DNA from: Candidatus Omnitrophota bacterium | GTDB taxonomy: Bacteria; Omnitrophota; Gorgyraeia; Gygaellales; Profunditerraquicolaceae | Assembly (NCBI GenBank): GCA_028717245.1 | Contig: JAQUOD010000002.1 | Location: 76,772-140,771 of the forward strand | Length of the DNA: 64,000 nt | Direction: 5' to 3' | Part shown: positions 1 through 24,300 of the stretch, piece by piece | Layout of the letters: every line of letters begins with the position of its first letter | Position numbering within the stretch: the first letter of the stretch is position 1 | Made by a program: the position numbers and the translations under genes | The notes under the pieces: model-generated | What the model saw: only the letters and a program-made list of their open reading frames with translations | The model's database searches: none | What the model was told of the DNA's origin: nothing

Positions 1-330
1 ATTAAGGTTGTGGGGCAACCATCAACTGAAACAAGCCAGCCAGCAGAAACTACCACTTCGCCTGCGGATACAGGAACGAAAGAGCAGCAGCCAGCCCAAG
101 CTCCAGTGCCAGTCGAGCCAGAAACCCCAACCTCAGCTCCGACCGCGGTTCCTGCGTCAACGCCAACAGCCGAAGAACCTGCGCCTACTCTTGCTCCGGC
201 CGCAACAGAGCAGCCCGGCGAGCAAGAAGAGGCTGAGGTTAAGGTTGAGGGCGAAAAAGCTCCGGCCGCGGCTCCCGTTGAAGCGAAGCAAGCAGAGGAA
301 AAAGCAGCCGAAGCGCAAGCTGAAAAGGAT
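1..330 (+). other. Low-complexity Pro/Thr/Ala/Glu-rich linker ([16 protein letters not shown]...[16 protein letters not shown])
   Basis: Direct translation of frame +1. Confidence 0.6.
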
Positions 331-3300: not shown

Positions 3301-6300
3301 GATATCAGTAAAGGCGCATTAGAGGTATGGGTAGAACGTACCTTCGGGAAATTTCAGGCCGAGCAGAAATTAAGGGAGGCGCTTGAGGTATTAAAAGATT
3401 TAACGCCTGAGAGACTTGAGGCCTTAGGCATTGCCAGAAGCGGTAACGGTATACCCCAAATAGGTAGTTTGGCAGGAAGAGCCTTCTTTAATGAACGGCT
3501 GGATTTGGATAGAGATATGTTAGAAGCGCTAAATGCTTTGGAAATAGTATCTAATAGAGATGTGCTTCCGGATTCCCAGTATGCTCATCTAGCCAATATT
3601 AGCCTGGTGCATTTGATAATTTTATATAAGGTTTACCGGAATAAAGTCTACAGGAGAGGATTGGGATTAAGCGAGAAGGATAATAATTTCATAGATTTCA
3701 TATATAAAGTTTACCGCGGAAGAGCGGAAACGGAAAAAATAAGAAAGTTATTTCAGAATCTTACCCTGCAAGACTTGCAAGAACTTTCTAAATATACAAA
3801 TCCTGAGGATAGGTTGAATACGATACAGCATAAATTGAAAGAAATGATTAACAAGCTTAAAAATGATTGTCCCACAGAGGGAGAGAGAATAGAAATGATA
3901 AAGGGGCTTTTAGAGGGATTACCGGCAGGGCAAGAGCCTATGTTACGCATCTTAAATGAAGACTGCGAAAGGTTAGCAAAGGCAGCGCCCCTCTATCCTT
4001 ATTTGATAAAAGCTATTTGTGACCACTACTCCCGTAAGTTCGGCAAGCATTGGCTTTTGCTTTTTGTGGCCAGAGACGCCGGATCATATTTTGAAACAAT
4101 TGACCAGATGGTTAAAGTGGGCTTGATAGATGCCATCTTTTCTATTATTTATGTAAGCGGAGCAAATTATCCCGAAGCAAGGAACGCCTTCTACCAGGGC
4201 ATTAAGACAAAAGAGGAATTTGAAAGGGAATTAGAAAATAATCCCGAACTCAGGTCAGAGGTTGAACGGCTTATCCAGCAGATGAAAGATTTGAAAATTT
4301 TAAATTATGAGCAGTTAGTCATTATGGATTCCTGGGGAACGGGGGCCACCCCTTTATTTATGAAATTGACTATGGAGCACTGTTTAGCTGAATTAGGCAG
4401 GAGGATGAAAGTAAAGCCGATAATAAACGCAGAAATACTGGAAGTAAAGCTTAAAGAAATTAATAGCAAGGGCGAAAAAGTAAGCCCGAACACAGAAAGC
4501 CGTATTAATGTTACCACCCTATTGGAGTTACTCGATGATGAGAAACTTGATAAAGAATTAGTAGCTAAATTAGAAAATTCTATTAATGCGGTTGCGGCCG
4601 AATATAAACTTTGGCCGGTAGAACCCGGATTCCTGCCCGGTAAGCCCGAGGGCATACTTTTCTCTTATCTGCGCGCCATGCTTACCTATAATAGTATAAT
4701 TGAGTATATGAATAGTTCAAAAGGCCCGGATGATTCCGCTACCACAAACGGCAAAAATAACGCTCCTATGGGCGGCTTTGACCCGGCCCGCACAGACGGT
4801 TTGGATAGGCTCCCGGCAGAAAAAACAGAGGAAGCGCGGGCAAAGCTAAGAGGCATTATTAATGATTATGTCAGAAACTCCAAGGATGAGATTTTTGGCC
4901 TTAAGGAGATAGAGTCTGATGCGCAATCAAAGCTGAAGGTTATCGGTATATTGAAACAGGGAGGTTATCGCGATATAGCAAAAATCTTACGCCACTCCTT
5001 AGTAGCGCGCGCTCCGCCCGGATTCGGGTTAATAAAAGCAATCCAAGATTTTGAAAAAGAGTATGGTGTAATTGTGTATGCCGTTAACATCCCCGCCAAT
5101 CTTTCCCCGGTAAAGCAGAATATCATTGTAATCATTAATCAGGCAGAAGAAGAGTTAACCCCTTCTATTGCTCACGAAGCAGCCAGCCTCAAAGGGTTAT
5201 CCGATGAAGAATGTAAGGCATTTGAAGATAAATACACCCGTTTAGAAAACAGATACCTAAAAGCAGAAAACTCCGCGTTAAGAAATGAGGTTATGGTTGA
5301 TGGGCTAACCCGGTCTTTTAACCGCAGGTATTTTGACCTGTCTTTATCTACAGAAATAAAAGAGGCGCTAAGATATAAATACCCCTTGTCTTTATTGATT
5401 TGCGACATAGATAATTTTAAGCGCGTCAATGATAGCTATGGCCATCAGGCAGGGGATTCTGTTTTGCAAGAATTATCCGGGCTCATAAAGAACGCGGTAA
5501 GGGCAAGCGATATAGTCTGCAGGTATGGGGGAGAAGAATTCGTGATTATATTGCCTCATACCAGCGAGGAAAAAGCAGCGGTTGCCGCTGAAAAGATTAG
5601 AAAGATAGTTAAGATGTACAGATTTAACGCCCTCGCAGATGGCATAAAAATAGGGCTTACAGTAAGTATAGGAGTGGTGAGTTTAGGGGATTGCGTTTCT
5701 ACGGAAGAACATCTCATAAAGAGTGCGGATGCTGCCTTGTATTATTCTAAGGCGCAAGGAAGAAATCAGGTTACCCGTTATTCCCGGATGCCAAGAGCCG
5801 TCGATTCCGCCTGCGAAGCGGACAATAATGATTCTTATAAAGTCCTTGAGATGGGCGCGGGCTACGGGTATTCCTTACTTCAGTTAAGAGAACTCCATCC
5901 TGAATGGGAGATCACTGGTATTGATAAGGACAGCCTTGTAATTGAAGTAGCCAAAGAAAGCTGCGGCGAAAAGATTGAAAACATGGATGCTACGAGTACT
6001 TCCTTTGCAGATGGAACGTTTGATTTAGTCATCATAAATTATCCTTTGGATACCAATACGGTCCTGAACGGTTTCTTGAAGGAGGCGTGTCGGGTTCTCA
6101 AAGTGGACGGAAGAGTAGAAATTGTGACTGAGGCTCCTCGCTTTGGTAATCATTTCTCGGTTGAGCAAGCAAACATTTTACTTTCTGAAAATGGCTTTAG
6201 GAAGATAAAGATAGGCCCGCGGCCAGCAGATTATCCTAAATCTAATTTTGATTATCTTGACCTTGATCCTACCGGAAAATTCCACCCCATAAATCCGTTC

Positions 6301-9300
6301 CTTATTGCCGGGTATAAAAAGTCTTTCGCGCCCGTTCCCGGATTGAATATGCCTCCGGCGCAGGAAACGGGAGAAAATGCTCTCGCTCAGCTTTTTTTAA
6401 ATCGCTTATATACGGCTGCTAAGGAGAAATCAGGGGTAAGGGCCATGGCGATGGTGGATACTTACTTGAAACTCTATCTTTATGATTCCGTGCCTGTTGT
6501 GGCTTTACCCGGCTCTTTTACGTTAGAGCTGTTTAAAGGAAAAGCAACGCAGGAACAGTTAGAGCAGATTAAGGCCGTGAAAGAAATATTATCCATACCC
6601 GAAATTAGCGCGTTGACCGGGCACGATAAAAATAAGGAGAACGAATTCCTGACTAAATATGTTTATGCACATTTTGCGTCTCTTAAAATTGGAAAAAAGC
6701 AAAGCATCCTTTCCATATTGCCTTTTATCGGTGCCACTCTTCAAGGGGCAGTAATTCAAGGAACAGCTTATTCGTCCAACATCCTTAGCAGTCCTATTTT
6801 CTGGGGGTTAGTGGTTGCGGTTGGTTTGACAGGTGCATTGGTTTATATGGTTAGGAATTGGGGGAAAGTTAAAGATGTTCTAATCCGCAGCCCGCCTGCC
6901 TTAAAGAAGGCAGTTTCTGTCTTTGCGGCGGCATTAATATTTATTGCCATTCCTGCGCTTACTTTTACCTGCACGCCGCAGTCCGCTACACCGCCTATTA
7001 TTCCTCCAGCACAAGAACAACCCGTAATTCCCCTCACAGAGGAACCCGTAAACATAAAGATTGCCCCTGGAGATGTTGTTGCCGAAGAGCTAATCAAGAC
7101 AACCATAGCTAACCTTTCTTCTTTACCCACTCGTTATATTGGCACTCCTGAGAATATAGGAACCGCAATATTTATAAAAGACCTGCTAAAAACATATGGC
7201 TATAAAGATGCAAAGAACACTAATAACGAACCTTATTATTTGTACAAAGAGTTAGAAAGCGGCATACCCTTATATGTTGCGGCAGTTATTCCAGGAAAAG
7301 TTAACGGCGCGAAAAATATTATCCTCTCAGCCCATTTTGATGCTTTTTATGCCGGCGCAGATGATAATGCTTCGGGCGTTGCGGCGCTGTTAGAGATATC
7401 AAGGTTATTAACAAATACGCATCCTGATAGCGCTATTTATGTTGTATTTACAAATGCTGAAGAGTTTGACGGCTTGGGAGTAAATTCCTTTATTAAAGAT
7501 ATGGTTGAAGAGGAGCGCGTAGAACCAGCGAATAGTATAGTGTTGGATGTTGATTCCATTGGCCAATCGCACCTTAGTATTGAGGATAATAATGGAGAAA
7601 ACAGAGAACCCCGGATTTGGATAACTTCAGTAGATGCTCCGAACCAGATAGAGCCAGTATCCTTATATTACGATACTTCATTGCCGTATAAATTATATGT
7701 AGACTCCAATAAAATGCAGCCACTCTCCGGCGAAAGTAATGCGTGCGTGTTTGCTTATTATGGATTTCCTGCAGTAACTATTTCTGGCATATCGCGTTCA
7801 CAAGCCCAAGAAGTTAAAATCTTTCATACAACCAAAGACGCTTATGGCCGGGTATCCACCGAAGCAGTTAATAGTATTACATCCTGGTTATTAGAAGTTG
7901 TATCCAAGAGGTCAGGTTTATCCGAAGAAATAAAATCCGCAGAAAGTGTGCTTATTTATTCCGATTTGAAAGTTGAAACTTCTGATTATACGGATAATTT
8001 AAGTATTTCATGCAATAAATCGGGTTTTGACTTTATGAATTTGGGTGATTTTGTGGTATCAGAGAGAGGTTACTCTATGGTTTCCGAGTGGACAGAGTTT
8101 TTAAAGAAGAGGTTCCCAACGTATGGTGAATATTTAAAAGGGATTAAATATGGTTATATAAGAGGCCAGTGGGGGGTATCTGGTAATACAGTTGCACACG
8201 CAGATACAAACGGAGGTATAATCGAGGTCGGATTTCCTTTGGAACCTTACCCGATGCGTAATGGTTTATTTGTTTCTTCTCCGTATGGAGGGCATTATTT
8301 CTCTCCTGAAGTTGTAATAACGCATGAATTGGGGCATCTAATTTTGGAGAAAAAGTTTGGCATAGACAAAGGCCAACCGGCATCTGTGGGTGTAAGCAGC
8401 AAAATAGAAGACTTAGGTTATAGCATTCCTTATGTAAATCAATTAGACGAGCTCATAGTTACAGATCTTGCATATAAGTTGTTATACGGAAGAATACCAA
8501 CCGAAGGATATTTTACCGGAAAAATATTCGAATCAAAGGATTACGGCTCTAAGATTAATTGGGAAAGTGTAAAAATAGATTTAAGTTCTACTGAAGAAGC
8601 AAGAGAAGCATTTCTTAAATACTTATTTAATGAAATAGGAGTTGATCAAGATACAGATTTGTTAAAAGAACCTGATTTATCTATTTCAAGATACATTCCA
8701 TTTTTACCCGTTGGAACCGTTATCTCTGGCGGGATTATAGTAAAACCCGAAGATGTAAAAGACGCAGGACCATTCTTCCCGAATTCATTATTACCTACTG
8801 TTATCCCGCAGATGTTATTGCCGGTTGCAGGCGCAATTAACCAGAGAAATAAGAGACTTGTTCAGAAAGGCAAAGTTACTATATTACGTTCAATCATTGT
8901 TGTTTTAGTGGGCCTGGGTGTGGGGCTTGGTGCGTGGTTATCGGCAGCTTTCTTTGGCCCTTCAGCTCCTGTTAACGCCGCCGAGCTTCAAGCGGCAGTA
9001 ACTCCGGCGGAAGCTTCTTCGTCCAACATCCTTAGCAGTCCTATTTTTTGGATAGGAGCAGGGATAGCTGGATTAATGGCTGCGTATCGCTTGGGCATAC
9101 TTAAGAAGGCCTGGCAGGTTGTCCACAGGGCTCTCAGCCCGCCTGCTTTGAAGAAAGCTTTCCTCGGCTTCATAGCATTAGTGCTCATTTCTATTTCTGT
9201 ATCTATCTCATCCTGCAGCTGTAAACCAGAATCAACTCCAACGCCGCCTGCCGCTATAGAAAAATCGGCTCCACCAATTTCAACATCTATTGCGCCAGCG

Positions 9301-12300
9301 CCAACCGCACAGGCGCCTATCTCCCAGAAAGATATTTTAGCTATTACCAATTGGCTGAAAGCAAACGTCAGCACTACCACCGGCTTACCTTTCAGCTTCC
9401 AGATACCCGAAGATAAGAAGAAAGAAGTCTATAGCCGTATGGGAGAAGCTAATTCTGTAAAGGGGATTATTGAACGAATGATTGTAAATGAAGGCTTGGA
9501 AGTATATGACGGCGCTTGCTGGGGGATACTTCTTACAGCGAGCGGCGACAATAAGAACTTAGAGTTAGCCTTTATACCTATTAATACTTATTGGAACGGC
9601 TCCTTAGGCCAGTTGCAGACCATTAGGGCGGGTTTTGCAGGAAAGAATACAGACCAACCATTTATCTATGATATAAATAGCCCTACTTCCGTATCCGCTT
9701 CTTTGGCGGATAAAGGAAAACGCGGCTTTATCTTCAGGATTATTGATGCCAATGGAAAATATAATACTGCTGACCCGTTAGATGGGAAGACTTATCTCCA
9801 AGGGTTCCCTACCTGGCCTACTATCCACTGGGAAGATTGGAAACCTATTGCCGGCGAGAACGCTTGGATAAGTATGCAGGCAGCGCAGTATCATAACGTT
9901 AAGCATGACGCCGTTTCATTACAATTAGCAGAAGAATTAGCCAGGACAGCCATATTACTGCAGGCAGAGAACGGCGGTATTCGGATGGCTCCCATTGGCA
10001 CTTGGCATGAGCAAGGTTCCGAATTTTATTATTATGAAATCTCTACGGAAAATAACCACTCTTGGTATAGTGCCTTCAGGATGCTTTATCAGATAACCGG
10101 TAAGGATATTTACAAAAAAGCAATGGAAGGAATTGAACGCTACTTTAAATCTGTTTGGGATCCGGAAACCAATACCTTCTATCAGGGCGCGCATTACACT
10201 AATGGCCGGTGGGTTCTTAATAAGAGTGACTTTGCGGAGGATTGTCAGAGCTGGGGAATTGATGTCTTAGGGCCGCAGAAGATAGATTCCTGGTTTGGCG
10301 AAGGCGCCTCTTATAAGATGTGGAAGAAGACCAAAGAATTATCCGGATATTATCAGGGGAATAAATTATTGGGCGTGGGGTACACCGCTGAACATGATCA
10401 GCTTTCAGTAGAATGGACAAACGGTGGGATTTTTGCTACCAGAGAGTTAGCTACTTATTATCAAAATACCCATCCAGATTGGGCAAAAGAATGCGCTGCT
10501 GATGCCCAGAGCATGAGAGATGGAGTTGAGACTCTGAAACAGGAATCAAATGGCAAAACCGGTTACTCTTATTCTTTAAAGAGAGAATATATACCGTTTG
10601 GATGGTATTCACACGAACCGTCAGTTTTAAGCACTACATCTACTGCCTGGGTGGGATTTGTAGATTTAGGTTATAATCCTTTCTATTTAGGCGGAAAGTC
10701 AGGAGTAGTTCCTGCTACGGCACAATTACCGGCAGCTACTGCGAAAGCGACGCTGACTCCGACACCGACTCCAACTTCTGCTCCAATAACTCCCCAGCAG
10801 CAAGTGAAAAAGGCATTAGAGGTAGATTTAGGAAACTTACAATATTATTCCGGCACAGGCTGGGCTTCTTGCGCTGTGGACGTGGTCAATATTGACGCTT
10901 CAGGATACGATACGCTTAGAATTAAGGCATCAGGCAAGGCAGGGGATAAGTTTATTGTGCAGTTGCTTGATTCCTCTATGCACGATGATAGTTCAAGCGG
11001 GATAAGTTCAACAAAGGCCCTTTCCGGTAGCTCTCAAGAAGTAAATATACCTCTTTCAGAATTCCGCGGCGTAAATCTAAAGAGCGTGCGCCGGATTGCT
11101 ATCCATTATGGCCGAAGCGCCTGGGGCAGTGCTCTTAACCCGCAGGGAGCAGATATCGGATTAAACGGCATTACCTTTATTTCAACACGGACAGCCGGAC
11201 TTCTGCCGGTTGCGCCAACCACAGCTTCATTACCTTCTGTTCCTTTAGCCACTATTCCGTTAAATATGCTTCTAGCGTTGGCAGTTGGGCTTATCCAAAT
11301 AAAGAAAAGAAACAGCAAAATAAAAGGTTCTAATGTCGGACTCCTAAAGAAATCCGCAAAAGAATCTTTACAAGGTAAATCTAACTTTATAGGCGATTTA
11401 GCTATTAAGGCATATTTAACGAAGGGTTGCCTGTCAGGATTAAACAGGAGAGCGGCGATAGGAATACCTGTCGCGCTTATGCTCGCAGTAATCCCCGCCA
11501 TAATGCAAAACATCGAAGTTCGGGCGCAATCCGGGACATTACAGATAACCCCGCCAAGTAATCCACAATACGCTTCAGGCACGAATTGGGCCGCTCGTTG
11601 GGTAGATGTAGGAAATATCAATGTTTCAGAATACAGCGTTTTAAGGCTTAATCTATCAGGCAATGTTGGAAATAACTTTATTGCACAGTTATTAAATACC
11701 TCTATTACCGATGATAATAGTTCAGTTGGCAAAAGCCCGGTATATACTCTGACTGTTGCTTCTCAAGACATAGATATACCTCTTTCGGCATTCGCTGGCG
11801 CTAATTTGAGTAGTATTCGCAGGATTACTGTCCATTTCGGCGCGACCGCTTGGGGGAACTACCTTAATCCTCAAAACACAAATATAATAGTAAACAGGAT
11901 TGCCTTTGTTGACACTATTGCGCCTGCTATCTCCATAGTTGCTTCTTCAAACATCACCAGCTCTTCAGCGGTGATTACCTGGACTACCAATGAGCCAGCA
12001 GATTCGCAGGTAGAATACGGCACCGGCACAAGCTACGGCTCAACTACCAGCTTAGATGCTGCTTTAGTCACCAGCCATTCAGTTACTCTCACAGGCCTTG
12101 CACCCGGCACTACCTATCACTACTGCGTAAAGAGTAAAGATGCCGCAGGAAATCTCGCTCCCGGAACGGACAATACCTTTGTTACTCCTGCAGCTCCGAC
12201 TCCCACTCCGACGCCTACGCCTACACCGACGCCTACGCCGACACCTACACCAACTCCAACTCCAACTCCAACTCCGACTCCGACACCGACACCAACGCCG

Positions 12301-15300
12301 ACACCAACACCAACGCCTACACCCACTCCGACGCCTTCTAAAATAAAGGGAGTTACCTTATCCACGGTACCCAAAGGGAAAACCGATAAAGACTTAATTC
12401 TCGATTTAGCCTCTGTGGGCGAAGCCAATATTAAATTAATGTCTCAAGCAGGAATAAATACAGTAAGGACCTATTATCCTCCTTCCGGAGACTTATTAGA
12501 TGCCTTTGCCAGATATAATATAAAAGTAATTATAGGATTCCCGAAGGATGATTTGAGAAATATTCTTGAACAGTATAAGGCGGATATTAAAGGAGGCAAA
12601 TACAAAGATTACATAAATCAGTATAAGAATCATCCTGCGGTCTTGATATGGGAGCTGGGTAATGAATATAACCTGCATCCGGAGTGGTTCGGCGGGGATT
12701 TAAACAATTGGTGGTCAATGCTGAAAGACGCAACCACTGTAATCCATAGCATTGATCCTAATCATCGGGTATCCACTACTTTAGGATACGCGAATTTATC
12801 CAGCGATATCCCGCAAGTAGTGGCTGCGGGCGTTGATGTGATTGGCTTAAATTACTATGCAGGGGGGGATAATTATTCAGCTGCGGTTACGGAACTAAGG
12901 GCGCTTACAAATAAACCCATCTATTTTTCCGAAGGCGGGACAGACTCTTACAATAACAGTATAAATAAGGAGAGTCAAGCTGAGCAGGCCCAGGCAGTGG
13001 TAAATATTTGGAATTCAATTAAAGATGCGGATGTTTTGGGGATTACCTTTATGACTTGGCAGGATGAATGGTGGAAATCCGGAAATCCTGCTGCCCAGGA
13101 TATGGGTGGATGGCCTACTCTTGCTGCCTATGATAATTTTATAAACGATGAATGGCTGGGCTGGAAAACTATAGACAAAATACGTAAATTGGTTTTAAAT
13201 GAAATTGCTAAGCTGTGGACAGGGGCGCCTCTGCCAGCAGCGCCTGTTGTTTCACCAATTGTCCTTTCTGGTATCACCACTGGCTCAGCTGTAATTACCT
13301 GGGAAACCGATGGGCCAGCGGATGCGCAGGTAGAATATGGCATCGACACAAGCTATGGTTCAGCCACTACCTTAGATGTTGCTTTAGCCATCAATCACTC
13401 AGTTACTCTCGCAGGCCTTGCCTCCGGCACTACCTATCACTACCGCGTAAAGAGTAAAGATGCCGCAGGAAACTTGTTTACCAGCAATGACTATGTCTTT
13501 AGCACTCTTGCGCCACCTGCTCCGCCTTCAGGCGGCGGCGGTGGTGGTGGAGGCGTAGCACCGATAAACGCAAACAAGCCTCCGGTAATAAAAGATATAC
13601 CGCCACTCAACTTAACTCTCGGCCATAGAAGGCTTCCTATAAACTTAAAGGATTATGTTTCTGATGATACGACCCCCGATTCTGATTTAATCTATAATTT
13701 TAACCCCGCTGATTTAGACCCCGATGTCAACGCTACTTTAACCGGCCCTATCTTAACTATCAGCGCTCCGCCGACTTGGGAAGGGCCGACTTCGCTGGAT
13801 ATCACGGTAACGGATACAGGAAAGGCCTCTGCCTCATATACATTGACGATAAAAGGTAAAGCTAATAAGGCACCGGGAGTAATAAAACCTATACCGCAAT
13901 TAAATTTCTTTACCGATAGGAGAAAAGACAGCAGAGACTTAAAAGATTATTTCTTTGACGAGACTATTGTGTCTCCTTTGACTTACCGCCTTGATAAATC
14001 TTCGTTAAACCCCGATGTCAACGCTACCTTAACCGGTTCTATCCTGACTATCAGCGCCCTACCGAAGTGGGGAGGCACAACTTACCTTAATATTACGGCA
14101 TCAGATACAGAATTAGATACTACATATAAGTTAACGATAACCGGCGAGGCTAATAACCCGCCGGTAATAAGAACAATGCCGCCAATCGCCGTCTTCGCTG
14201 TCGGCAATAAATGGCCCGGCATAAACTTAGAGCAATATGTTTCTGATAAAAACACTGCAGCGTCCAAATTAAGCTACGAAATCATTAATCCCCAAAGGAT
14301 AGACTCCCGCTTGAACGCAACTATTGATGGCAGCCATATTTTACATATTTCTACCTCGGCCAATTGGAAAGGCACAAGCAGCGTTACGCTTAGAATAGGC
14401 GACGGGGAATTGTCAACTGACTGTACTTTAAATGTTTCTGTTAACACCGAAATCCCGGCTCCCACGCCTACGCCTAATCCGATACTTCAGCCTGTTGTTG
14501 ATTTATGGCAGAATACCTGGGTTAAAGTAACTGTGGCAGTAGTAGGGGTAGCCGTTGTATTTAGTATTATCCTTGCTTTCTTAATGAGGATAAGGAAACA
14601 GGGTGGAAATGTTACTGCTTTAGGTTCAATGATTGCCGGCTTAAGTTTCATTGCTGCTGGAGTTCTGGCAGGCTTATTTATTCCTGTCGTCGGTCTCATT
14701 GTGGGCGGGCTACTGGGCGCCGCAGGAGCCTTCTTCATCGCCCAGGCAATGGCAATTGTTTATGCCTTTGTAAAGCAAGGCGGAATCAGGGGCCAGCCGC
14801 GGTATAAGTATCTTACTACTCCTATTGCCCAGCCTACTTATCGCCATCTCGCCTTCAAATATTTGCCAATAATATTCAGAATCTCCATTAACCGCCACGA
14901 ACGGACCCACTTTAAACACAAAAGTGAGATAAGGGCTTACCTTAACCAGGCCTTATATCTAATACCAGATGCTATTAAATCTACGAAAGAATCCATAAAG
15001 GAATCCGCAAAAGAAGCCTTGAAAGGTAAGCCTACCTTTATAGGTAACTTAGCTCTTAGGATTGCATTAACCGAAGATTATTTACCGCGGTTCAGCAGGA
15101 GAGAGGTAATTGCCATACCAGTTGTAGCTGTAATAATTGCTGGCGCAGCAATTCCAGCTATAGTTCAGACTGTTGAAGCGAAGGAAGAATCCGAAGTAGT
15201 TGTTTTTGTTTTGGATAGCGGAGAATATTTTGATTGGCAAGATGCGGTAACGGTTATACTTAAGGATGAGTCTAAGAATATACCGGTTGAAGATACCATG

Positions 15301-18300
15301 AATAAAGTTCATGGTAGCATTGTAACGAAAATTATTAAAGATGCTTGCAGTGGTGCGAAGATAATTTACAAAAATGTTGGCGTAATTAGACCTTCTATAT
15401 ATATGCCGAATGAGAAAAAGTTTATTATCCCCGGTTTTACAGTATCTGTTGTGAAATATCTAACGGAATTAATAGACATTTTAGACTATGTCAAAGTTCA
15501 TCCGCAGGAAAAAATATTAGTTAATATGAGTTTCGGTAATTATGAATACGATCCTTTAGAGTACGCAGTCATAGAAACTCTCGCAGAAAAGGGAGTGATA
15601 TTTGTAGCGGCAGCAGGTAACGATGATACTGACGAGCCTATGTATCCTGCTGCATATGAAGAGGTGATTAGTGTTGCTGCCGCAGGCGATAAATCTAAAG
15701 CGGAATATTCAAATTACGGAGAGACTGTGGATATAATGGCAAGAGGTAAATTTGAGGCAGAAATATTACCCGGGATGGGAATTACATTTGGATTTGCAGG
15801 AACTTCTATGGCAGCTCCTCGAGTGACTGGTTTATTAGCCAGTATGCTTATGGAGAATCCTGAGATTTCTGCTCAAGAGGCAAAGGGGATAATTTTAAAA
15901 ACAGCAGATCCTATGAGTGATCCGCTCTATAAAAAAGGCATGTTAGGAGCGGGGATAATAGATAGCGATGAAGCATTATATGAAACTTCAGAAATAGTAT
16001 TTTTTAGACGGTATCCATCCGGTGTAATTAAGAGTTGGGTAGCACAAGGGAACAGCATATATTCTGTATTCTTATCGCCTGATGGAACAAAATTAGCCCT
16101 GGTTTACAAGGATAAAAATATAGAAATCATTGATTTTGCTAGTGGAAATGTTAAGGTTACCAATGAACGTGCCGATTACGCAAGTCCCATCGCCTTTTTA
16201 CCTCAAGGAGAAACGTTATTCTTTATTAGTAATAAATCTGTAAAGATTATGGATCTCGCTACGGAAGAAGTTAGAACTATGGATGTGCCTAGAGGATATA
16301 TAAGCGATATCGCCTTCTCGCCCGATGGAAATAAACTTGCGTTGAGATTAGGAATAGAGGATAAAATCGATATTTTAGATCTTGCTACCGCAAAGTTGGA
16401 AACCATCGCTATTCCATCAAGCATTATTAGTATCGTATTTTCTCCTGACGGAGCTAATCTGGTAACAAGCTGTTATAATGGGAGTATATATGTTTATGAT
16501 TTAAATGCCGGAAAGGTTAAAGAACTGATAGGATATGAGGATACTTTTGATTTAGTATTTTCCATGGCCTTCTCGCGTGACGGAACTAAATTAGCCTTGG
16601 GTCATGGTACGGGTAATATAACTGTTTTAGACCTAAATGCAATAACGGCTAAAGTGCTAAAAGGGCATATAGATTCAATAAATACTATTGCTTTCTCCGC
16701 GGATGGGGCAAAATTAGTTTCAGGTAGCGTAGATAAAACTATAAGGATTTGGGATTTTAATAAAGAAGAAACCGAGACAATAAGAGATACTAATGAAATT
16801 CTTGCTGTTTTTTTATCGTCCGATGGTAATACGTTGATATCAGCGACCGGAAAAAACGTCAGAGCGTGGGATTATAAAAATATTAAAGCGTCAATAGATA
16901 AATTTAATTATTCTGAAAGACCATTCAGTTTTTTAGAGAGATCTTACATCCTTTCTTGGTGGGAGGGGCTAATATTTTCTGTTTCATCTTGGTGGGAGGG
17001 GCTATCTCTTGGGATACAGGTTTTAATAGTTTCTATCGGTCTCATAATACTTCTTGTAATAATAGATGAGTTAAATAATAGAAATTCTGAAAAAAACGTT
17101 TCTGCAAGAGGCTCTCTTATGGCAGGAATGGCTGCTTGGGTAGCCACAGGTATTATTTTAACTATACCTTTTATTTGGTCAATGATTCCTATGGTAGTAA
17201 TTCTTCCTGTTGTTTTATCGTTGTTTAGTTTCGGAGCTATATTCATCTACAAAGGGATAAGGATTTGGTTAACTAAGGCAGAGGCGAGCCGTGCGCCACC
17301 CACAAAAAAACAGCTTGAAGAATTAAAGAAAAGGATTGGAACTGGTTATAATCTAACGCTTCTTCCCCACGATGGTAGAACCGCCATCGCCTATGTTAAT
17401 AATAAGCGAGTACATATTGACCTATCTCGCTTCTATTATCTCTCCACTCTGATTCAAAAATCTATTCTTGCCCACGAGCAAGCCCATCTTAGAGGCCATG
17501 GCGAAATAATAGCATATTTTAACCAGGCCTTATATTTTATAACCAATATAATCAAAGATATTAAATGGTTACGTAAAGCCTACGACACGTTAAGTAAAAT
17601 AAGAATAAGAATACCTTGGCAAATACCCATCATTAGTAGCTTCATTACTTTGTTTGTATATGGCCTATTCGTATTTTGTAAAGGTGTCCTTGGCGTCATA
17701 CTCTATAACCTCGAGATATCTTTTATTAATGTTTACGCTAATTTATCTTATAGTACTGTTATCAGAGAGCTTACTCTTATTGATGTAGGGAGAGCCATTA
17801 AATCAATTGGATCTCTTCTCGCTCCCGTTACTGCAACCGTGAATTTCCTCTTTCCCTTTGCAATGGCAGGAATAGTAATACTTATGGTCGTTACATTCAT
17901 TGCAAAATGCCAGGATATTTATATCGGTTTACCTAAAGCCCATGTTTTCCATAAGGCACAAAAGCCATTGGTTAACCTCTATTTATCCTTAGAAGGGGAG
18001 AATTTAGAAAATAAGGTACAAGAAGAAATAAAAGATTTACGAGAACAGGTAGAAAATAAACAGATTTCATTAGGAGAGGTTTATTGGCGGGTAGCGAATA
18101 TATGCGAAGGAGCACTTAAAGAAAGAGACAGGGTAAAGAAGGACGCACAAAAAGAAGGAAAAGCTGGCGCAGCTTCTACGTTTGAAAACTGGAACGAGAC
18201 ACAAATAAAAGCTATAGAGCAAATCTGGCAGGATATTCAGGGGGCAGAGGAAGGCAATATTAGCAATATAAGTAAACTTGCCTATGAATTGATAATGTCC

Positions 18301-21300
18301 GGCGGCAAAACAGAATTAGCTTTCTTCATTTTAACATTATGGTATGTAGCAAAGAGTTATTTAGGCCTTGATAAAATAATTTATACCAGCTGCAACGAAA
18401 ATGCAGTAGAAGCTGATTTCGAGGCATTAAAAAAGGCATTTGAGATTATTAATATAAATGTTAACAAAAGATTAAAAGAGAAAGCAGATGAGCGGGATTT
18501 GAATGAATATGCCGCAGACGCCATTACCTTTGTCCCTTATCAGGTCTTCTCGATTGACTGGGAGAGGCATTCAATGGATACCAATCCAGTGATTAATACG
18601 GCAAAAACAGCGTTGCTGGGCTTAGAGTTTGATGCGCTCTTTGATGACCTATTTACTCCTCAGATTCTCTTAGGGGATCCCATCGGGCCGAGCGATATTT
18701 CAGACACTCAACATAAAGAAGTAATAAAAGAAGCAGTCTATTCTTATGCTGAGATACAAAGAATATATTCATTTGTCAAGGGAGAGCTTGAATGTGGAAG
18801 GGATTTTATAGTCAGGCAGTACGCTGATAAAGATGCAGAGGCGGAATCAGAAGGCGCGCGTTTTGAAACGCATTATATTGAGATTACAGAGGAAGGTTTA
18901 GACTTAATATTTAAAAAACTCGGGAATGATAACCGTTATGTAGCTTTGGTGAAAGGCTGTTTAGATGCAATGTACCTTTATCATCAAGGCATACATTATG
19001 TCACAAAGGCGGATGGCCTTCAATTAATACATACGCCTACAGGCCAGATTTTTGAAAATCGCCAATTACAGGACATCAATGTCTGGTTTGCGCTTTATGT
19101 AAAAGAAGGTTTATTCCAAGATAACCTTACGTCGGAGAATATGCGGATAGTCCTAAGTAGTTATTCCGAAACCAAGGATTATAGCAATCTTTTTTCTCTA
19201 TTGGATGCAATGGGTTTAGTCTGGGGCTTAAGCGGGACCTTGGAGCAGGCCCTTTTGGAGCAATTTGGCTATAGCGTAAAAATTATTGATGGCCAAGAAA
19301 TTGAAAAGGCAAGAAGAGGAGCGACCAAGGAAGAGCCCGCCCTGTTATATGCAGGAAAAAATTTCGCTATAGGAAAAGTAATTTTCGAGGCTAAAAAACG
19401 TGCCGACAAGAAAGAACGGGTAGTCATTTATGTGGAGGATGTAGAGAGTGCCGAAGAATTAGAGAAAAGATTTAGAGAACTTGGCATAATAGCGAATTGC
19501 TTAACTCAGGAAATGAGCCCGAAACAGATATCGGAGGTAGTAAAGAATGTCGCAGGTAGGAAGGAAGAGATTACTATTATTACTTCTTCTTCCAGCCGCA
19601 ATACCAACTTCAAATTAATTCTCGACGAGGATCACGGGGAATCAGAGGATTCCGAGTCGGCCATATTTAATTTCCTTATTCTCGGCGGAAGGGATGTCTG
19701 GCGCTGGCAGAGACAGCTTTTAGCGCGTATCCCGCGTTTGACAGGCTATAACGAAGGAATATACCATTTCGATCCTGCGCGAATTAAGAAATTCTATTAT
19801 TTAGAGCAAAGCCTATTCCAGAAATATCCTTCTGTGGCAGAGGAATTAAAGAAAACATTGCGAGGCAGAGAGAAATTAGAATTGGACTCTTTCTCTCATG
19901 AAGCAAGGTGCGCAGATAGCCTTATAGAAAGCATAATGGATATGGCAACTACGGATTATAACCAGCAGTTAGCAGAGCAGAGGATAGTGGAGAAGCCGCT
20001 TACTGTATTAAGGAATGAGTTTATTACAAGGCGGAATGAGCTTGATGACGATAGCCAGAAATTATTAGATGAGGCCTGGAGATTATTCTTAGCGAAAGTA
20101 GAAGATTTAAGGATTCTTCTGAGCGTGCCTTCAGCAAGCAAAGAAGCAACGATAGGCTATTGGGCGGTTCAACTACAAGAGGCGTTTGATAATACGGTAA
20201 TGAAGGCATATAGAGGAGAGGAATTAGAGAAAGAGAAACCCGTAGAAATCGTTGAGGATATATACGGGAGAGAAGTCGTGCCGGGTAGATTAGGGCGATG
20301 GTTAAAAGAATGTGTAATAGAAGCTTTGCGGGGAAGACCCAATCTTATAGGTAAATTAGTTGTTCGGTTATATATTTTATATAAAAATTTTGCAGCAGGT
20401 TTAAAACGTATGGTGCCCTCTTTGTCCTGGTCAACGGCAGGCACAACGGGAATAGCAGTAGTGATAGTGATTAGCGCCGTGGCTAGTACTGGCACACAAA
20501 ATGTTTATGCTCAGTCAAATAACAAAGTTAAAGTTGAAGGTTATCAATTATTAGTGGATGGCAAGCCGTATCAGATTAAAGGCATTACCTATAGCCCTGC
20601 CGGAAAAGGCACGCAGGGAGGCCAGTTCAGCCAATGGTATGAGAAGGATATCCCCTTGATGCAGGCAGCAGGGATAAATACTATCCGCACTTATGGAATT
20701 ATAACTGATAAAAATGTTTTAAAAGCATTTGCCGATGCAGGGATAAAAGTGATTGTAGGTTTTGATAATGCAAAAGATATAGCGACAGGCAACTATAAGG
20801 GTTATATAACCGAACACAAGGATGACCCGGCAATCCTAATGTGGGAATTCGGCAATGAATATAATTATCATCCGGAATGGTTTAGCGGAAATATTGATAC
20901 TTGGTATAACGCCTTAGAGCAGGCTGCCCAGGCCGCCCATAAATTAGACCCTAATCATCCGGTTTCAACTGCTCACGGAGAGGTGCCCGGTAAAGATATA
21001 GTACAAAAGGTTCCTTCGGTTGATGTCTGGGGAATGAATATCTATCGAGGCCAGTCTATCCAATCCGCGCTCTCCCAGTGGGCAAGCCTCTGCGATGAGC
21101 TCGGGATCACCAAGCCAATGTATGTTTCGGAGACAGGCACGGATTCTTTTAATAACTCTAAAGATGCGATAGATGAAGAGGCGCAGGCAGAGGCAACAGA
21201 GAATCTTTGGAGCCAGATAGACGGCTCAAGTAGTATCCATAATTCTAAGAATCCTTCTTTAGGAGTTACTTTTATGGAATGGAATGACGAATGGTGGAAG

Positions 21301-24300
21301 TCAGGAAGCCCTTCAACACAAGATAAAGGTGGTTTTGCGTTTAGCGTAGCCAGTGATAGCTTTGGTAATGAGGAATACTGGGGTTTTGTTGATATAGATA
21401 GAAAACCCAGATTGGTTTTAACTGAAATGGGTAATCTTTGGAAAGTGAAAGAAGCGGTTACGCCTGAACCTCAAGTTTCTCCTACGCCTGCAAGAGCGCC
21501 GCCTGTTACGCCAACACCTACGCCTACGGTTACATCTACACCGTCTCCAACCATAACCGCCGAGACACCAAGCCCGACACCCACTACCGCAGTAATTCCG
21601 GAAAAGACGACAGGGATCAAAGAAGAAATCAGTACGTGGGATAAGATATTAGATACTTTTAGAGAGATATTTAGTTGGGGTAACGCCGTTACTCAAACCT
21701 ATAACGGCGCTGAATTTGCTCCGGCTCCTACGTCGACACCTACGCCAACCATCAAACCCACACCTACGCCGACGCCTAAGCCTACCTTGACTGTGGGAGA
21801 AGTAATCGGCCAGAAAGACGTAAAGGGATTACAGTATCCTGTAACGCTGGAGACCGTAATTGCTATAGAAAAAGCGAAGCAGGTTTACATAGCCAGGCAA
21901 AAGGCGCTGGATGATCCCAACATCTGGGCTTATATTGAAAAAGATAACGATAACAATGATTACCCGGATGAACTGATTATCTTGAATAAGGCAGCTTATA
22001 ATGAGCTTTTGGAAAATAAGAAATTAAATCAAGAGGCGATAACTACCAAAGAAGGCGGCCTCCCCATCTATTATAAGATAACCTTAAAAGATACTGGCGA
22101 AGAGGTTCATTTTACGCCGGTAGGCGCAGAAGAAGAATTCACTCAAGCCGCTTCAGCCTTAGAAATCACTAAGGCAGCCAATGAGTCCTGGTTGAATTTT
22201 GATACCTACCCGGCATATATCACACAAGATACTAACGGCGACAGGCGGCCGGATATCGCGATTAAGCTTACCAAGAAAGACCTGCAATACCTTATTAATA
22301 ACGGGCTCCTCTTTTCAGAGCCGATAAATGATGCCCAAGGGAAGCTCTTATATTATAAGGTAACCTTAAGATATAATGCGACCTTGCCGGCAGGAGATGC
22401 CCTGAAAGCCGGTAGTGAGGTGCACTCCACCACGGATAAGGCGTTGATGGAGTTTCTTTCCGATGACCTGAAGGAGAGTCAAACAAGCATCCAGAATTTC
22501 CTGAATACTTTGGCTGGTGACAGGGCCGCAATCATAAATTTCCTGAATACTTTAGCTAACGATAAGGCCTTAATGCAAAACTTCCTAAATGCCTTAGCTA
22601 ACGACAAGGTCTTAATGCAGAATTTCCTGAATACTTTAGCTAACGATAAGGCAATAATGGAGGCCTTTGCAGCTACCTTAGCCAACGACAAAGTAGCTAT
22701 AATGTCATTTATAGACGCCGCCAATAACGGAGTTACTGATACCCAAAGGCTTCTCCAAGATGCAAGAGCAGGCGTAGGGGCAGCTCAAGCTAAAATTACT
22801 GACGCCCAAACAGAAATGGCCAAGTATGCTGACACTACTAACCCTGAAAACTACTCTATGTATCAATACTGGAATATGGTTACTTATATAAGGACAGCAG
22901 GAGGGGCAATCATACGTGCCGGTAATAATGTCAGTATTGTGGATATCAATGGCTCGGTAATATACGCTAATCCATTTGACTATAGAATGTATGTATCTGA
23001 AGGGACAAGCTATGAGCCGGGCTTAAACGGAGCGAATTGTTACGTAACCCTGATGCAGAAAGGCGGCTATATAGAAAGAGTTTCACAATATCAGATAGCT
23101 TATCATGAAGTTTCAGGCGGCGCGGTTAATTTGATTGGTTATGGAGGGTTTTCCGGAGGCACGCTTAATGTAGGCGAGAGCGTGGCTATGACCGGCGTGG
23201 ATGTTGCTAAAGCTTTCTTGAATTATATGACTAAGGGCGGGAATATGAAAGTTATGAATGACAAAGTTGTTGCCCTGAATATATTCGGTATGGGCACAGT
23301 TTATGCGCCGGCAGGGCTTAAAGTTGTTGCTTATCCTGATAACACAGCCGGGTTAGAGGGAATTAATAATATGATAGATGCTATGAATAACGATTATTCA
23401 TTTGAGGTCCAGGGCGATTTAGTAAAGTGGACAGTGCTGAATGTGGTTTCGGGCAAGGTAAGCACTTTTTCTGTTCCCGTATCCGCTACTATTGATGCCG
23501 CCCATACATTCCCCAAGACCGGCGGCTTAGGCGCGGTAAATAATATTATTACTGCTATGAATAATAATTATAGCTTTGTGGTGGGCGCTGACAATGTCAA
23601 ATGGGTGTCAGTAGATCCGGCTACGGGCAAGGTTTCCATCTTCTATACCGCAAAGACAGCAGCTGATGCGAGTCACCAGTTTCCCTCCAGCGGCGGCTTA
23701 GGCGCGATTGATAATATAGCTGTTGCCTTGCAGAATAGCTACGGTATGCATATAGTTGGCGACAGCGTCAGATGGGTAGTGGTGGACGTAAACACAGGTA
23801 ATATTATTGCTACTTTCTACACCGTCAATGTCCCTGCTGCTAATGTTGACGCAGCGCATCAGTATCCGTCTTCCGGCGGCTTGGCGGCACTTGACAAGCT
23901 ACCCATTGCCTTACAGAATAGCTACGCTATGGATATATCGGGCGACGTAGTCAGATGGAGAGTCGTGGATGTAGGTTCTGGAAATCTGGTTGCATCCTTC
24001 TATACAGCCGCGACTTCTGTTGTAAGCTCAAATCCATTACCGTCTTCCGGCGGCTTGGCGGCAATTGACAGGATACCATCTGCCTTACAAGGCAGTTATA
24101 CTATTACGCCGCTTGGCGGGGACAGCGTCAGATGGACATTATGGGATATGAAAACAGGATATGCCAATAGCTTTTTCTTTACGGCCTCAATCTATAGCGG
24201 TGACTCTGCGCATCAATTCCCGCGAAGCGGCGGCTTGGCTGTTATTAATAACCTGCTTTACGCCTTAGAAAATACTTATGTGCGGGAAGATTTAGTTGAT

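Follow-up and report, generated by a model that had tools for sequence, protein, structure and literature searches.

Are the giant proteins of the Omnitrophota, given as 20,000–150,000 residues long in the available text of the published accounts, single chains or are they cut, and if so, where? This question becomes directly testable at a locus in a Candidatus Omnitrophota bacterium (assembly GCA_028717245.1, contig JAQUOD010000002.1, positions 76,772 to 140,771 of the forward strand); the whole stretch of 64,000 nucleotides (nt) that was analysed is referred to below as the window. Within one giant gene that fills it there are three paralogous cassettes of about 65 residues, here called J1, J2 and J3, each predicted to stand directly ahead of an exported enzyme block. 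We think that these cassettes are probably copies of a portable internal start-transfer module in a giant multi-pass membrane protein. An earlier note on this DNA had likened them to the N-termini of independent secreted proteins fused in frame, and had offered three explanations: a polyprotein that is processed at signal peptides inside it, a chain that passes through the membrane again and again, and a serial fusion of once-separate genes.

Three paralogous cassettes in one giant reading frame

Forward frame 0 is open over the entire window, with zero stops in 21,333 codons (nt 1–63999) in a six-frame stop count that gives 761–1972 stops for each of the remaining five frames. The whole window is part of one giant gene that runs off both of its ends, and residues are numbered here along the giant frame as aa = (nt − 1)/3 + 1. 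The in-frame fusion without a stop, to which the earlier note had drawn attention, extends throughout the window, and the peptide strings quoted there are all present in forward frame 0 at the positions given. What the note did not recognise is that the whole window is one giant open reading frame (ORF) of the published kind.

The relationship among the cassettes is seen when they are searched against the whole ORF. J1 (aa 3782–3844) matches J2 (aa 4999–5064) with 45% identity over 66 aa (E 3e-14), and J3 (aa 6768–6841) gives reciprocal matches to both J1 and J2 with 27% identity (E ~3e-4). A hidden Markov model (HMM) built from J1 and J2 only scores J3 at 26–28 bits (E 1.5e-7 over 531 windows of sequence), while the best unrelated window of sequence reaches 4.5 bits and the maximum over 5000 block-preserving shuffles is 14.2 bits. 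Chance similarity of J3 to J1 and J2 was excluded by these shuffles, which never reached the J3 score. The leader alone accounts for 18 bits of that score and the hydrophobic part for about 5 bits; as the leader carries most of the J3 signal, the similarity is not an artefact of hydrophobic composition. With all filters off, the HMM search finds exactly three copies of the cassette in the window. Alignment, HMM and shuffles thus all bear out the three paralogous cassettes where the earlier note had placed them.

Every copy has the same order of elements: a basic leader of about 35–40 residues, an arginine/lysine pair (RR in J1 and J2, KR in J3), a hydrophobic core (18 residues in J1, 20 in J2 and ~12 in J3) and a polar tail of the form Q-(N/T)-(I/V)..V-x-A, which is followed by Q-S in J1 and J3 and by K-E in J2. 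The leader contains the conserved core (L/I)K(K/E)..(K/I)E(A/S)L.G(K/R)(P/S).(F/L)IG.L and possibly forms two short helices around it. An amphipathic leader was also considered, and this idea was dropped given ordinary hydrophobic moments (28th–90th percentile of the ORF). Conservation peaks in the leader and in the tail rather than in the hydrophobic core, and J1 and J3 have six of seven residues in common around the site (QN..V.AQS), as against 27% identity overall. There is a Pro or Gly at the boundary of the hydrophobic (h) and C-terminal (c) regions in all copies, and Pro interrupts the cores of J1 and J2, whose Kyte–Doolittle hydropathy (KD) is 2.4–2.6. None of the cassettes is N-terminal, each lying thousands of codons inside the open frame.

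The tail of each copy ends in a candidate cleavage site. The c-region of Sec signals carries small residues at −3 and −1 according to the Ala-X-Ala rule (PMC9360617), and all three copies satisfy the −3/−1 rule with a residue other than Pro at +1 (V-R-A/Q, V-E-A/K and V-Y-A/Q, the slash marking the predicted site). The ORF has 34 hydrophobic cores when counted in a 15-aa window at KD of at least 2.0 (43 uncharged runs at a 17-aa KD of at least 1.5, and 65 overlapping peaks in a raw 19-aa scan). The generic AxA-type pattern comes after 17 of these 34 cores and is present in 45% of random 15-mers, and alone it is weak, indeed uninformative, evidence. The specific V-x-A follows just four of the 34 cores, three of those being J1–J3. 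The AxA-type site of the earlier note is therefore present in all three copies, but its generic form says little by itself.

The limits of the module are sharp. The J1/J2 similarity begins at the leader and ends at the predicted cleavage site in both DNA and protein: identity of the DNA climbs from ~25% to 67–80% at nt 11329–11344, is ~80% over nt 11344–11403, and drops to background at nt 11526–11540, which is the V-R-A/Q-S site. The two copies share ~200 nt with an overall nucleotide identity of 63.5%, and residues identical between them use the same codon in 18 of 30 cases, against 9.9 expected, so that synonymous sites are unsaturated. The blocks downstream are mutually unrelated, a carbohydrate-binding module (CBM)-like/FN3/glycoside hydrolase (GH) series behind J1 and S8/WD40 behind J2. 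As judged from these edges and codons, the J1/J2 cassette is a discrete unit of ~200 nt that was apparently copied fairly recently within the gene. Because similarity is confined to the leader-to-site unit, has sharp edges in the DNA and makes paralogues of the three supposed N-termini, the module appears to have been duplicated within the gene rather than inherited from three genes. The GH domain after J1 is 42% identical to that after J3 (E 5e-62), and the distance from the site to the GH domain is ~270 residues at J1 and 20 at J3; this paralogy, together with the unequal distances, fits a history in which cassette and GH were duplicated together at an older date and the J1 copy later acquired an inserted domain.

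Membrane topology and candidate export signals

A topology for the chain was derived from hydrophobic runs, the positive-inside rule (counts of flanking K/R) and domain types. It predicts that GGDEF, S-adenosylmethionine (SAM) methyltransferase, a SecA-like motor, HExxH modules and the basic leaders lie inside, and that the M28, GH158-like, FN3 and S8/WD40 domains lie outside. All domains identified with confidence are placed on the side where their type would be expected, and each cassette is at a predicted inside-to-outside crossing, directly ahead of an exported block. The repeated threading through the membrane suggested in the earlier note is thus upheld in a self-consistent form.

The charges that flank the cassettes are part of this derivation. 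Before the cores, K/R make up 13 of 50 residues at J1 (aa 3768–3817), 22 of 111 at J2 (aa 4925–5035, a loop with 9 D/E) and 17 of 104 at J3. In the 50 aa past the sites there are 2 K/R at J1, and 5 K/R against 11 D/E at J2. The transmembrane (TM) helix upstream of J1 is followed by 5 K/R within 15 aa and preceded by 1, and aa 4843–4924, ahead of J2, comprise uncharged hydrophobic runs of 20 aa and 58 aa with basic flanks. On this topology the block before J1 would be outside, one TM helix would lead inward, and the J1 cassette would lead out again; the GH block would follow outside, and three TM helices would return the chain to a cytoplasmic HExxH loop and leader, from which the J2 cassette would lead out. 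The S8/WD40 block would then be outside, a TM cluster (with an odd number of helices assumed) would bring the HExxH and SecA-like region inside, and the J3 cassette would begin an exported stretch of ~3,290 residues, ahead of a polytopic cluster and cytoplasmic metabolic enzymes. The earlier note had each junction begin with a hydrophobic helix and basic tail. This layout is found at J1 only: at J2 the stretch that it took for an anchor is the non-hydrophobic HExxH module, the true TM helices (aa 4843–4924) lying ~75 aa upstream and outside its range, and at J3 the upstream region is soluble and SecA-like, with the nearest upstream TM helix more than 800 residues off.

Table 1. Features of the giant reading frame; nt positions are those of the window.
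Feature	Position (nt)	Residues (aa)	Strand	Description
Giant ORF	1..63999		+	At least 21,333 codons, extends past both window ends; Pfam domains all along the frame
Lipobox-type junction, copy a	6721..6972	2241-2324	+	TM helix, basic loop ...PPALKK, core ending LTFT-C2324, P/T-rich linker, M28 block
Lipobox-type junction, copy b	8968..9222	2990-3074	+	TM helix, ...PPALKK, hydrophobic core ending ISS-C3072, SC, KPESTPTPP linker, unannotated block
J1 stop-transfer TM helix	11239..11301	3747-3767	+	KD 2.1-2.2, then basic tail KKRNSK; closes the preceding exported block
J1 leader	11332..11451	3778-3817	+	Basic, predicted cytoplasmic; paralogous to J2 and J3 leaders
J1 signal-peptide-like segment	11446..11526	3816-3842	+	RR, 18-residue core, QNIEVRA; predicted signal peptidase I site A3842/Q3843
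Exported block 1	11527..14526	3843-4842	+	Beta-sandwich (CBM-like?), FN3, (TP)n linker, GH158-like TIM barrel, FN3-like DUF7800
Three TM helices ahead of J2	14527..14772	4843-4924	+	KD 2.5-3.0; close block 1 and lead back into the cytoplasm
HExxH module	14854..14988	4952-4996	+	Immediately upstream of J2 leader, non-hydrophobic
J2 leader	14983..15105	4995-5035	+	Assigned by paralogy and HMM
J2 signal-peptide-like segment	15097..15180	5033-5060	+	RRE, 20-residue core, QTVEA; predicted site A5060/K5061
Exported block 2	15181..16998	5061-5666	+	Subtilisin-like S8 and WD40 beta-propeller
Divergent SecA-like motor region	18385..20073	6129-6691	+	Predicted cytoplasmic; ends ~75 aa upstream of J3 leader
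J3 leader	20293..20409	6765-6803	+	18 bits against the J1+J2 HMM
J3 signal-peptide-like segment	20404..20511	6802-6837	+	KR, core of ~12 residues, polar c-region STGTQNVYA; predicted site A6837/Q6838
Exported block 3	20512..30336	6838-10112	+	GH158-like TIM barrel, tandem repeats, third GH copy; no TM helix for ~3,290 aa

The contents of the three blocks largely agree with what the earlier note had read there, namely FN3 and GH after J1, S8 and WD40 after J2, and GH after J3; the CBM that it also placed after J1 is a weak hint only (a galactose-binding-like domain, E 0.076). In block 1, Pfam matches are to fn3, Pur_ac_phosph_N, Glyco_hydro_2_C and DUF7800, with the FN3 domain at aa 3980–4054, followed by the (TP)n linker and the GH TIM barrel at aa 4114–4399. 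Block 2 matches Pfam Peptidase_S8 (E 4e-22) and WD40 (E 3e-21), and subtilisin BPN' in the PDB (E 2e-15); by motif the S8 triad is intact (D5072, H5104 and S5269), and the strand of the catalytic Asp, VVVFVLDSG, begins 6 residues past the J2 site. The GH domain of J3 matches the GH158 structure 9oro_A (E 6e-11) and is aligned from +10 of V-Y-A/Q. Thus, at J2 and J3 the folded domains start 6–10 residues past the site, as they do in stand-alone secreted enzymes. The ORF has three paralogous GH158-like TIM barrels on the forward strand, 36–42% identical (nt 12340–13197, 20572–21441 and 27157–28107), and a cassette precedes just two of them.

Of our proposal that the cassettes are internal start-transfer modules, the parts seen directly are their paralogy and exact edges, their position at the inside-to-outside transitions of the predicted topology, the nature of the flanking domains, and a site that satisfies the −3/−1 rule. 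How such a module works, including its engagement of Sec and SecA and the role of the leader, we infer as follows. During synthesis at the membrane, the hydrophobic core would enter SecYEG with its basic side kept in the cytoplasm, and its entry would restart translocation of the following hydrolase block of 600–3,300 residues. The driving force would presumably be SecA or, for J3, the in-chain SecA-like motor ~75 residues upstream. Transfer would stop at the next hydrophobic helix that carries a basic tail, and the module itself would have spread by duplication inside the gene. The SecA-like region matches SecA and SecA2 chains of the PDB with E 2e-7 to 4e-6, while its Pfam matches to SecA_PP_bind and P-loop_SecA are under the gathering score; in the order of the frame it precedes J3, at the head of the longest exported stretch (~3,290 residues).

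Several points weigh against this proposal. The topology comes from hydropathy and charge rules and not from a trained predictor, and the parity of helices is assumed for the TM clusters at aa 5670–5967 and from aa 1014 onward. The leader is not notably amphipathic, and AlphaFold gives no reliable model of the J1 junction (predicted local distance difference test, pLDDT, 38). No homologues of the cassette were found elsewhere in the searches described below, and so there is no comparative support. Constraint is read from three copies in one gene, two of them recent copies, and the finding as a whole comes from a single gene.

A second kind of junction lies upstream in the same frame. Residues aa 2241–2304 and aa 2990–3053 are 48% identical (E 2e-6), and both copies lead from a basic loop through a hydrophobic core to a Cys, a residue that makes up 0.53% of the ORF. 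In the lipobox of bacterial lipoproteins, a short hydrophobic core is followed by Leu-Ala/Ser-Gly/Ala-Cys at −3 to +1 (PMC9360617). The I-S-S-C3072 of copy b fits a relaxed form of this motif, whereas the T-F-T-C2324 of copy a, with T at −1, does not. Copy b also has a weak match to the lipoprotein N-terminus PG1828_fam_lipo (E 0.054), while the lipoprotein-attachment model of Pfam gives no match to either member of this family. From these features the second family looks like an internal lipoprotein signal. With it, the first 10,000 residues of the ORF hold five exported blocks, each behind a signal-like segment, and the segments are of two paralogous kinds.

One chain or several products

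If the cassettes are start-transfer signals, the chain may be cut at them or left whole. In the first case the gene would encode a processed polyprotein: signal peptidase I (SPase I) would cut after A3842, A5060 and A6837, Lgt and signal peptidase II would process the two lipobox-type junctions, and the products would be separate enzymes, each tethered by a lipid or by a TM helix at its own C-terminus, or released by a second cut (by the S8 domain, for example). We regard this as a serious candidate that nevertheless falls somewhat short of being likely. In its favour, the −3/−1 rule is satisfied with no Pro at +1 in each of the three copies, conservation is concentrated in the c-region (the six of seven residues shared by J1 and J3 noted above), a Pro or Gly stands at each h/c boundary, and the site is where the duplicated unit terminates. 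At ~12 residues, with S, T and G on its flanks, the J3 core is like that of a signal peptide and short for a stable anchor, and the conserved Cys and P/T linker of the second family are most sensible if that junction is lipidated and cut. There is precedent in the cutting of LtaS by SpsB (PMC12260438) and in viral polyproteins (PMC5402940, PMC5113920), and the authors who described giant genes suspect cleavage but, in the available parts of their accounts, lack sites.

Other features of the same junctions count against a cut. The cores of J1 and J2, with their 18–20 strongly hydrophobic residues and KD of 2.4–2.6, are more like uncleaved signal anchors; the generic −3/−1 pattern trails half of all hydrophobic cores; the conservation between J1 and J2 is inflated by recent copying; and copy a of the lipobox-type junction is non-canonical, with T at −1. 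In addition, no signal-type model of Pfam or NCBIfam matches any cassette: those for ESPR (the extended signal peptide region), twin-arginine translocation (Tat) and lipoprotein attachment in Pfam, and for PEP-CTERM or LPXTG-type signals in NCBIfam, gave no match at E up to 1–10. On balance, we consider cleavage by SPase I at the V-x-A sites plausible but a little less than even, with J3 close to evenly poised and J1 and J2 somewhat lower.

The long and very hydrophobic cores of J1 and J2 are equally what is expected if the cassettes are plain uncleaved TM anchors, that is, ordinary inside-to-outside helices in a chain that stays intact, the AxA-like tail being incidental. The chance frequency of the −3/−1 motif, ~45–50%, is compatible with such an incidental tail, and the 2026 preprint, in the part available, reads proteins of this type as intact membrane-anchored chains and internal signal calls ('S') as chunking artefacts. 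However, plain anchors leave unexplained why conservation lies in the leader and c-region rather than in the core, why the J3 core is so short, and why the cores of the second junction family end in Cys; moreover, hydrolases meant for prey walls would stay on the inner membrane. We find this reading credible in part but, with these difficulties, rather doubtful. A more elaborate version of the processed polyprotein, in which one translation product, encoded by more than 64 kb, is divided by two kinds of internal signals (three of SPase I type and two of lipobox type) into separately anchored or lipidated exo-enzymes in fixed ratio, and in which the leader hands the signals to Sec or to the in-chain SecA-like motor, strikes us as unlikely, if attractive.

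Were the cassettes instead derived from the ends of formerly separate genes, relatives that begin with the leader might be found among stand-alone proteins. A word-index protein search with the alignment of the three cassettes found no homologues, and an exhaustive search of 1.84 billion representative proteins with the cassette HMM found no true homologue. The sole HMM match, a NACHT/HEAT-repeat protein with only 16 leader positions aligned, was rejected as spurious. A scan of GTDB genome DNA for the cassette pattern gave 76 pattern matches and 0 confirmed cassettes, and a profile search of the PDB with the cassette returned nothing at E up to 10. Likewise, no orthologues of aa 5640–6900 or aa 3740–6900 were recovered from the protein search, GTDB DNA or viral contigs. 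The longest protein among the matches listed is ~2,300 aa, and the searches missed the protein of the window itself, so that the libraries probably under-represent giant ORFs; the negative result is solid for ordinary-sized stand-alone proteins and weaker for giant ORFs. Stand-alone secreted proteins starting with the leader, for which the earlier note had suggested a search, are not found among the representative proteins.

Relatives of the GH block itself do exist. The closest with substantial coverage are proteins from Omnitrophota metagenome-assembled genomes (P0075, P0089 and P0115), with 47–57% identity. Other relatives in Omnitrophota include one that starts with an ordinary signal peptide (P0077) and one that ends in a TM anchor and a stop codon (P0118), architectures that count in favour of the start-transfer proposal; the contigs of P0118, P0115 and P0077 contain no cassettes. 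A metagenome scan yielded one related locus (L001), linked via its GH domain alone and without a cassette. Positions 1–13562 of this locus (contig Ga0074195_1000320, 104 kb) are fully open over 13.5 kb, or 4,520 codons, as a giant frame; a GH158-like domain 45% identical to that of the window is followed there by TM helices, with no cassette in these 13.5 kb.

A history of three independent gene fusions, each joining an old C-terminal anchor to the N-terminal signal peptide of the next gene, can draw on these relatives as well: the blocks resemble stand-alone secreted enzymes, and P0077 and P0118 are separate proteins with just such a signal peptide or such a terminal anchor and stop codon. 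Nevertheless, the three supposed N-termini are mutually paralogous, yet two of the three blocks downstream are unrelated; J1 and J2 share ~200 nt at 63.5% identity with sharp edges; an anchor is directly upstream in J1 only; the word-index and exhaustive HMM searches failed to find a stand-alone protein beginning with the leader; and there is no relic of a Shine-Dalgarno sequence and start codon at the leaders. We therefore hold fusion relics to be improbable. The serial fusion of the earlier note, in its simple form, is contradicted by the paralogous N-termini, the sharp edges in the DNA and the unsaturated synonymous sites.

A role for Tat, which by way of the RR would insert the last helix and export a folded domain, is very improbable. 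The N-R-R-A-A-I(-G) of J1 and S-R-R-E-V-I(-A) of J2 loosely fit polar-R-R-x-hydrophobic-hydrophobic, the J1 c-region has a basic residue, and there is a precedent of an internal twin-arginine helix in polytopic actinobacterial Rieske proteins, which Sec and Tat insert together (bioRxiv 10.1101/111781). On the other hand, J3 has K-R, the cores are strongly hydrophobic (KD 2.4–2.6) while Tat signals are less so than Sec signals (PMC9360617), no Tat-signal model is among the Pfam and NCBIfam matches, and the exported blocks, of 600–3,300 residues, are cofactor-free and tethered at both ends.

The RR of J1 and J2 is encoded by AGG AGA (nt 11446–11451 and nt 15097–15102), a Shine-Dalgarno-like AGGAGA inside the ORF, after which no start codon was found at J1 or J2; the hexamer may be a pause element or simply reflect shared ancestry. 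Internal translation starts or transcription units near the leaders, which would express the blocks separately, have this Shine-Dalgarno-like sequence in their favour and are otherwise the least credible of all the explanations, there being no in-frame ATG, GTG or TTG at suitable spacing from a Shine-Dalgarno sequence at any leader and no excess of promoter-like sites (19 versus 25.4 in shuffled sequence) or terminator-like sites (12 versus 9.6).

The rest of the gene and comparison with known systems

The ORF resembles the published Omnitrophota giant proteins of "Archaeovorin-type" in its many TM helices, divergent SecA-like motor, GGDEF, S8, GH and methyltransferase domains, and starch-synthase/GT1/PGM enzymes. 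Pfam and PDB-sequence searches of the frame place GGDEF at aa 1765–1923 and the SAM methyltransferase at aa 1943–2042, followed by an M28 peptidase (aa 2426–2633; Pfam, E 1e-19), the FN3 and GH TIM barrel (aa 3980–4399 together), the subtilisin S8 and WD40 (aa 5072–5631), the second and third GH copies (aa 6858–7147 and aa 9053–9369) and a large polytopic cluster (aa 10128–12541). The ~9,000 terminal residues (nt 36000–63999, forward strand) are enzymes of cytoplasmic type for sugar nucleotides and glycogen, encoded in one frame with the exported hydrolases: an NTP transferase, fucose pyrophosphorylase, two GT5 starch-synthase domains, GT1, PGM and a GH77 4-alpha-glucanotransferase, the last with a strong match (E 1e-114).

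Copying within the frame is seen well beyond the junctions. A segment of 135 residues is duplicated with 75% identity (nt 37678–38082 and 40504–40908), tandem repeats occur at aa 7778–8197 (nt 23332–24591) and aa 11626–12274 (nt 34876–36822), and a diverged repeat series spans aa 12801–15335 (nt 38401–46005), all on the forward strand. The giant gene thus appears to grow by internal copying. The HExxH module ahead of J2 (aa 4952–4996) is likewise paralogous to aa 5811–5855 (nt 17431–17565, forward strand), with 47% identity (E 5e-7). The motif HE..H occurs three times in the ORF, against 0.28 expected, and both modules sit in predicted cytoplasmic loops; the module has no Pfam match, and its AlphaFold model is too poor for use (pLDDT 47). 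These modules may be a minimal zincin-type protease.

Outside the giant frame, the longest ORF, which is the sole other ORF of at least 150 aa in the window, lies antisense to J1 (nt 11106–11732, reverse strand; 208 aa, TTG start). It was rejected as a real gene and is probably due to chance, given its featureless translation and a stop-poor frame (761 stops). tRNA and Rfam scans of the window were both empty, and the window contains no marker gene.

Giant Omnitrophota proteins are already known, as are internal start-transfer helices. What is new here is a junction cassette, conserved and duplicated, whose candidate processing sites can be named exactly; it is absent from the giant-gene literature as far as the available portions of those papers go. 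The predicted sites are A3842/Q3843, A5060/K5061 and A6837/Q6838, in addition to Cys2324 and Cys3072. If they are cut, a single gene could let predatory ultra-small bacteria deliver many enzymes for wall degradation; otherwise, giant genes are still seen to grow by copying a self-contained export module before new enzyme blocks.

The closest known systems include the giant Omnitrophota proteins themselves, which, in the text available, have numerous TM helices, a divergent SecA DEAD/preprotein-binding region, GGDEF, S8, GH and starch-synthase/GT1/PGM domains (West-Roberts et al., bioRxiv 10.1101/2023.11.21.568195; 2026 preprint 10.64898/2026.06.07.730766). The locus described here shares with them a giant ORF of tens of thousands of codons and the TM, SecA and domain repertoire. 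In the portions of these papers at hand, however, no conserved junction cassette or candidate cleavage sites are described: cleavage is suspected, with whether and where it happens left open (bioRxiv 10.1101/2023.11.21.568195), missing cleavage points are named in one giant-gene paper as an obstacle to analysis, and the pipeline of the 2026 preprint (10.64898/2026.06.07.730766) downgrades internal signal-peptide calls as chunking artefacts.

In their proposed mechanism, the cassettes resemble the type II signal-anchor helices of polytopic membrane proteins inserted by Sec/SRP, with their basic cytoplasmic flank, N-in/C-out entry, restarted translocation and a next helix that stops it. They differ in being a conserved, duplicated module of ~65 residues, with a leader and a signal-peptidase-type tail, that stands before enzyme blocks of 600–3,300 residues and not before loops. 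The conserved extension known as ESPR, of ~25 or more residues with a charged N1 and a weakly hydrophobic H1, is found on large autotransporters and TpsA proteins (PMC2805444). The likeness is one of layout only, in the order N1-H1-N2-H2-C and in the very large exported passengers; ESPR is N-terminal and proteobacterial, and it has no sequence similarity to the internal cassettes, on which its Pfam model finds no match.

For processing, a bacterial precedent is the cutting of polytopic LtaS by Staphylococcus aureus SpsB between its membrane and extracellular domains (PMC12260438). LtaS likewise has an extracellular enzyme domain behind its polytopic membrane part, and a type I signal peptidase cuts it after the last TM helix, but it is a protein of normal size with one experimentally shown site, whereas the giant ORF has three candidate sites of this type and two of lipobox type. 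In arrangement, there is a parallel with viral polyproteins, in which host signal peptidase cuts internal signals, as between core and E1 of hepatitis C virus and in bunyavirus Gn/Gc (PMC5402940, PMC5113920). In both cases units are joined in frame, and an internal signal peptide, or here a signal-peptide-like segment, comes after the membrane or cytoplasmic part of the previous unit. The viral proteins are cut at the eukaryotic endoplasmic reticulum, their signals are not mutual paralogues, and their cleavage has been demonstrated; if the sites predicted here are cut as well, the giant gene would be a bacterial counterpart of these signal-peptidase-processed polyproteins.

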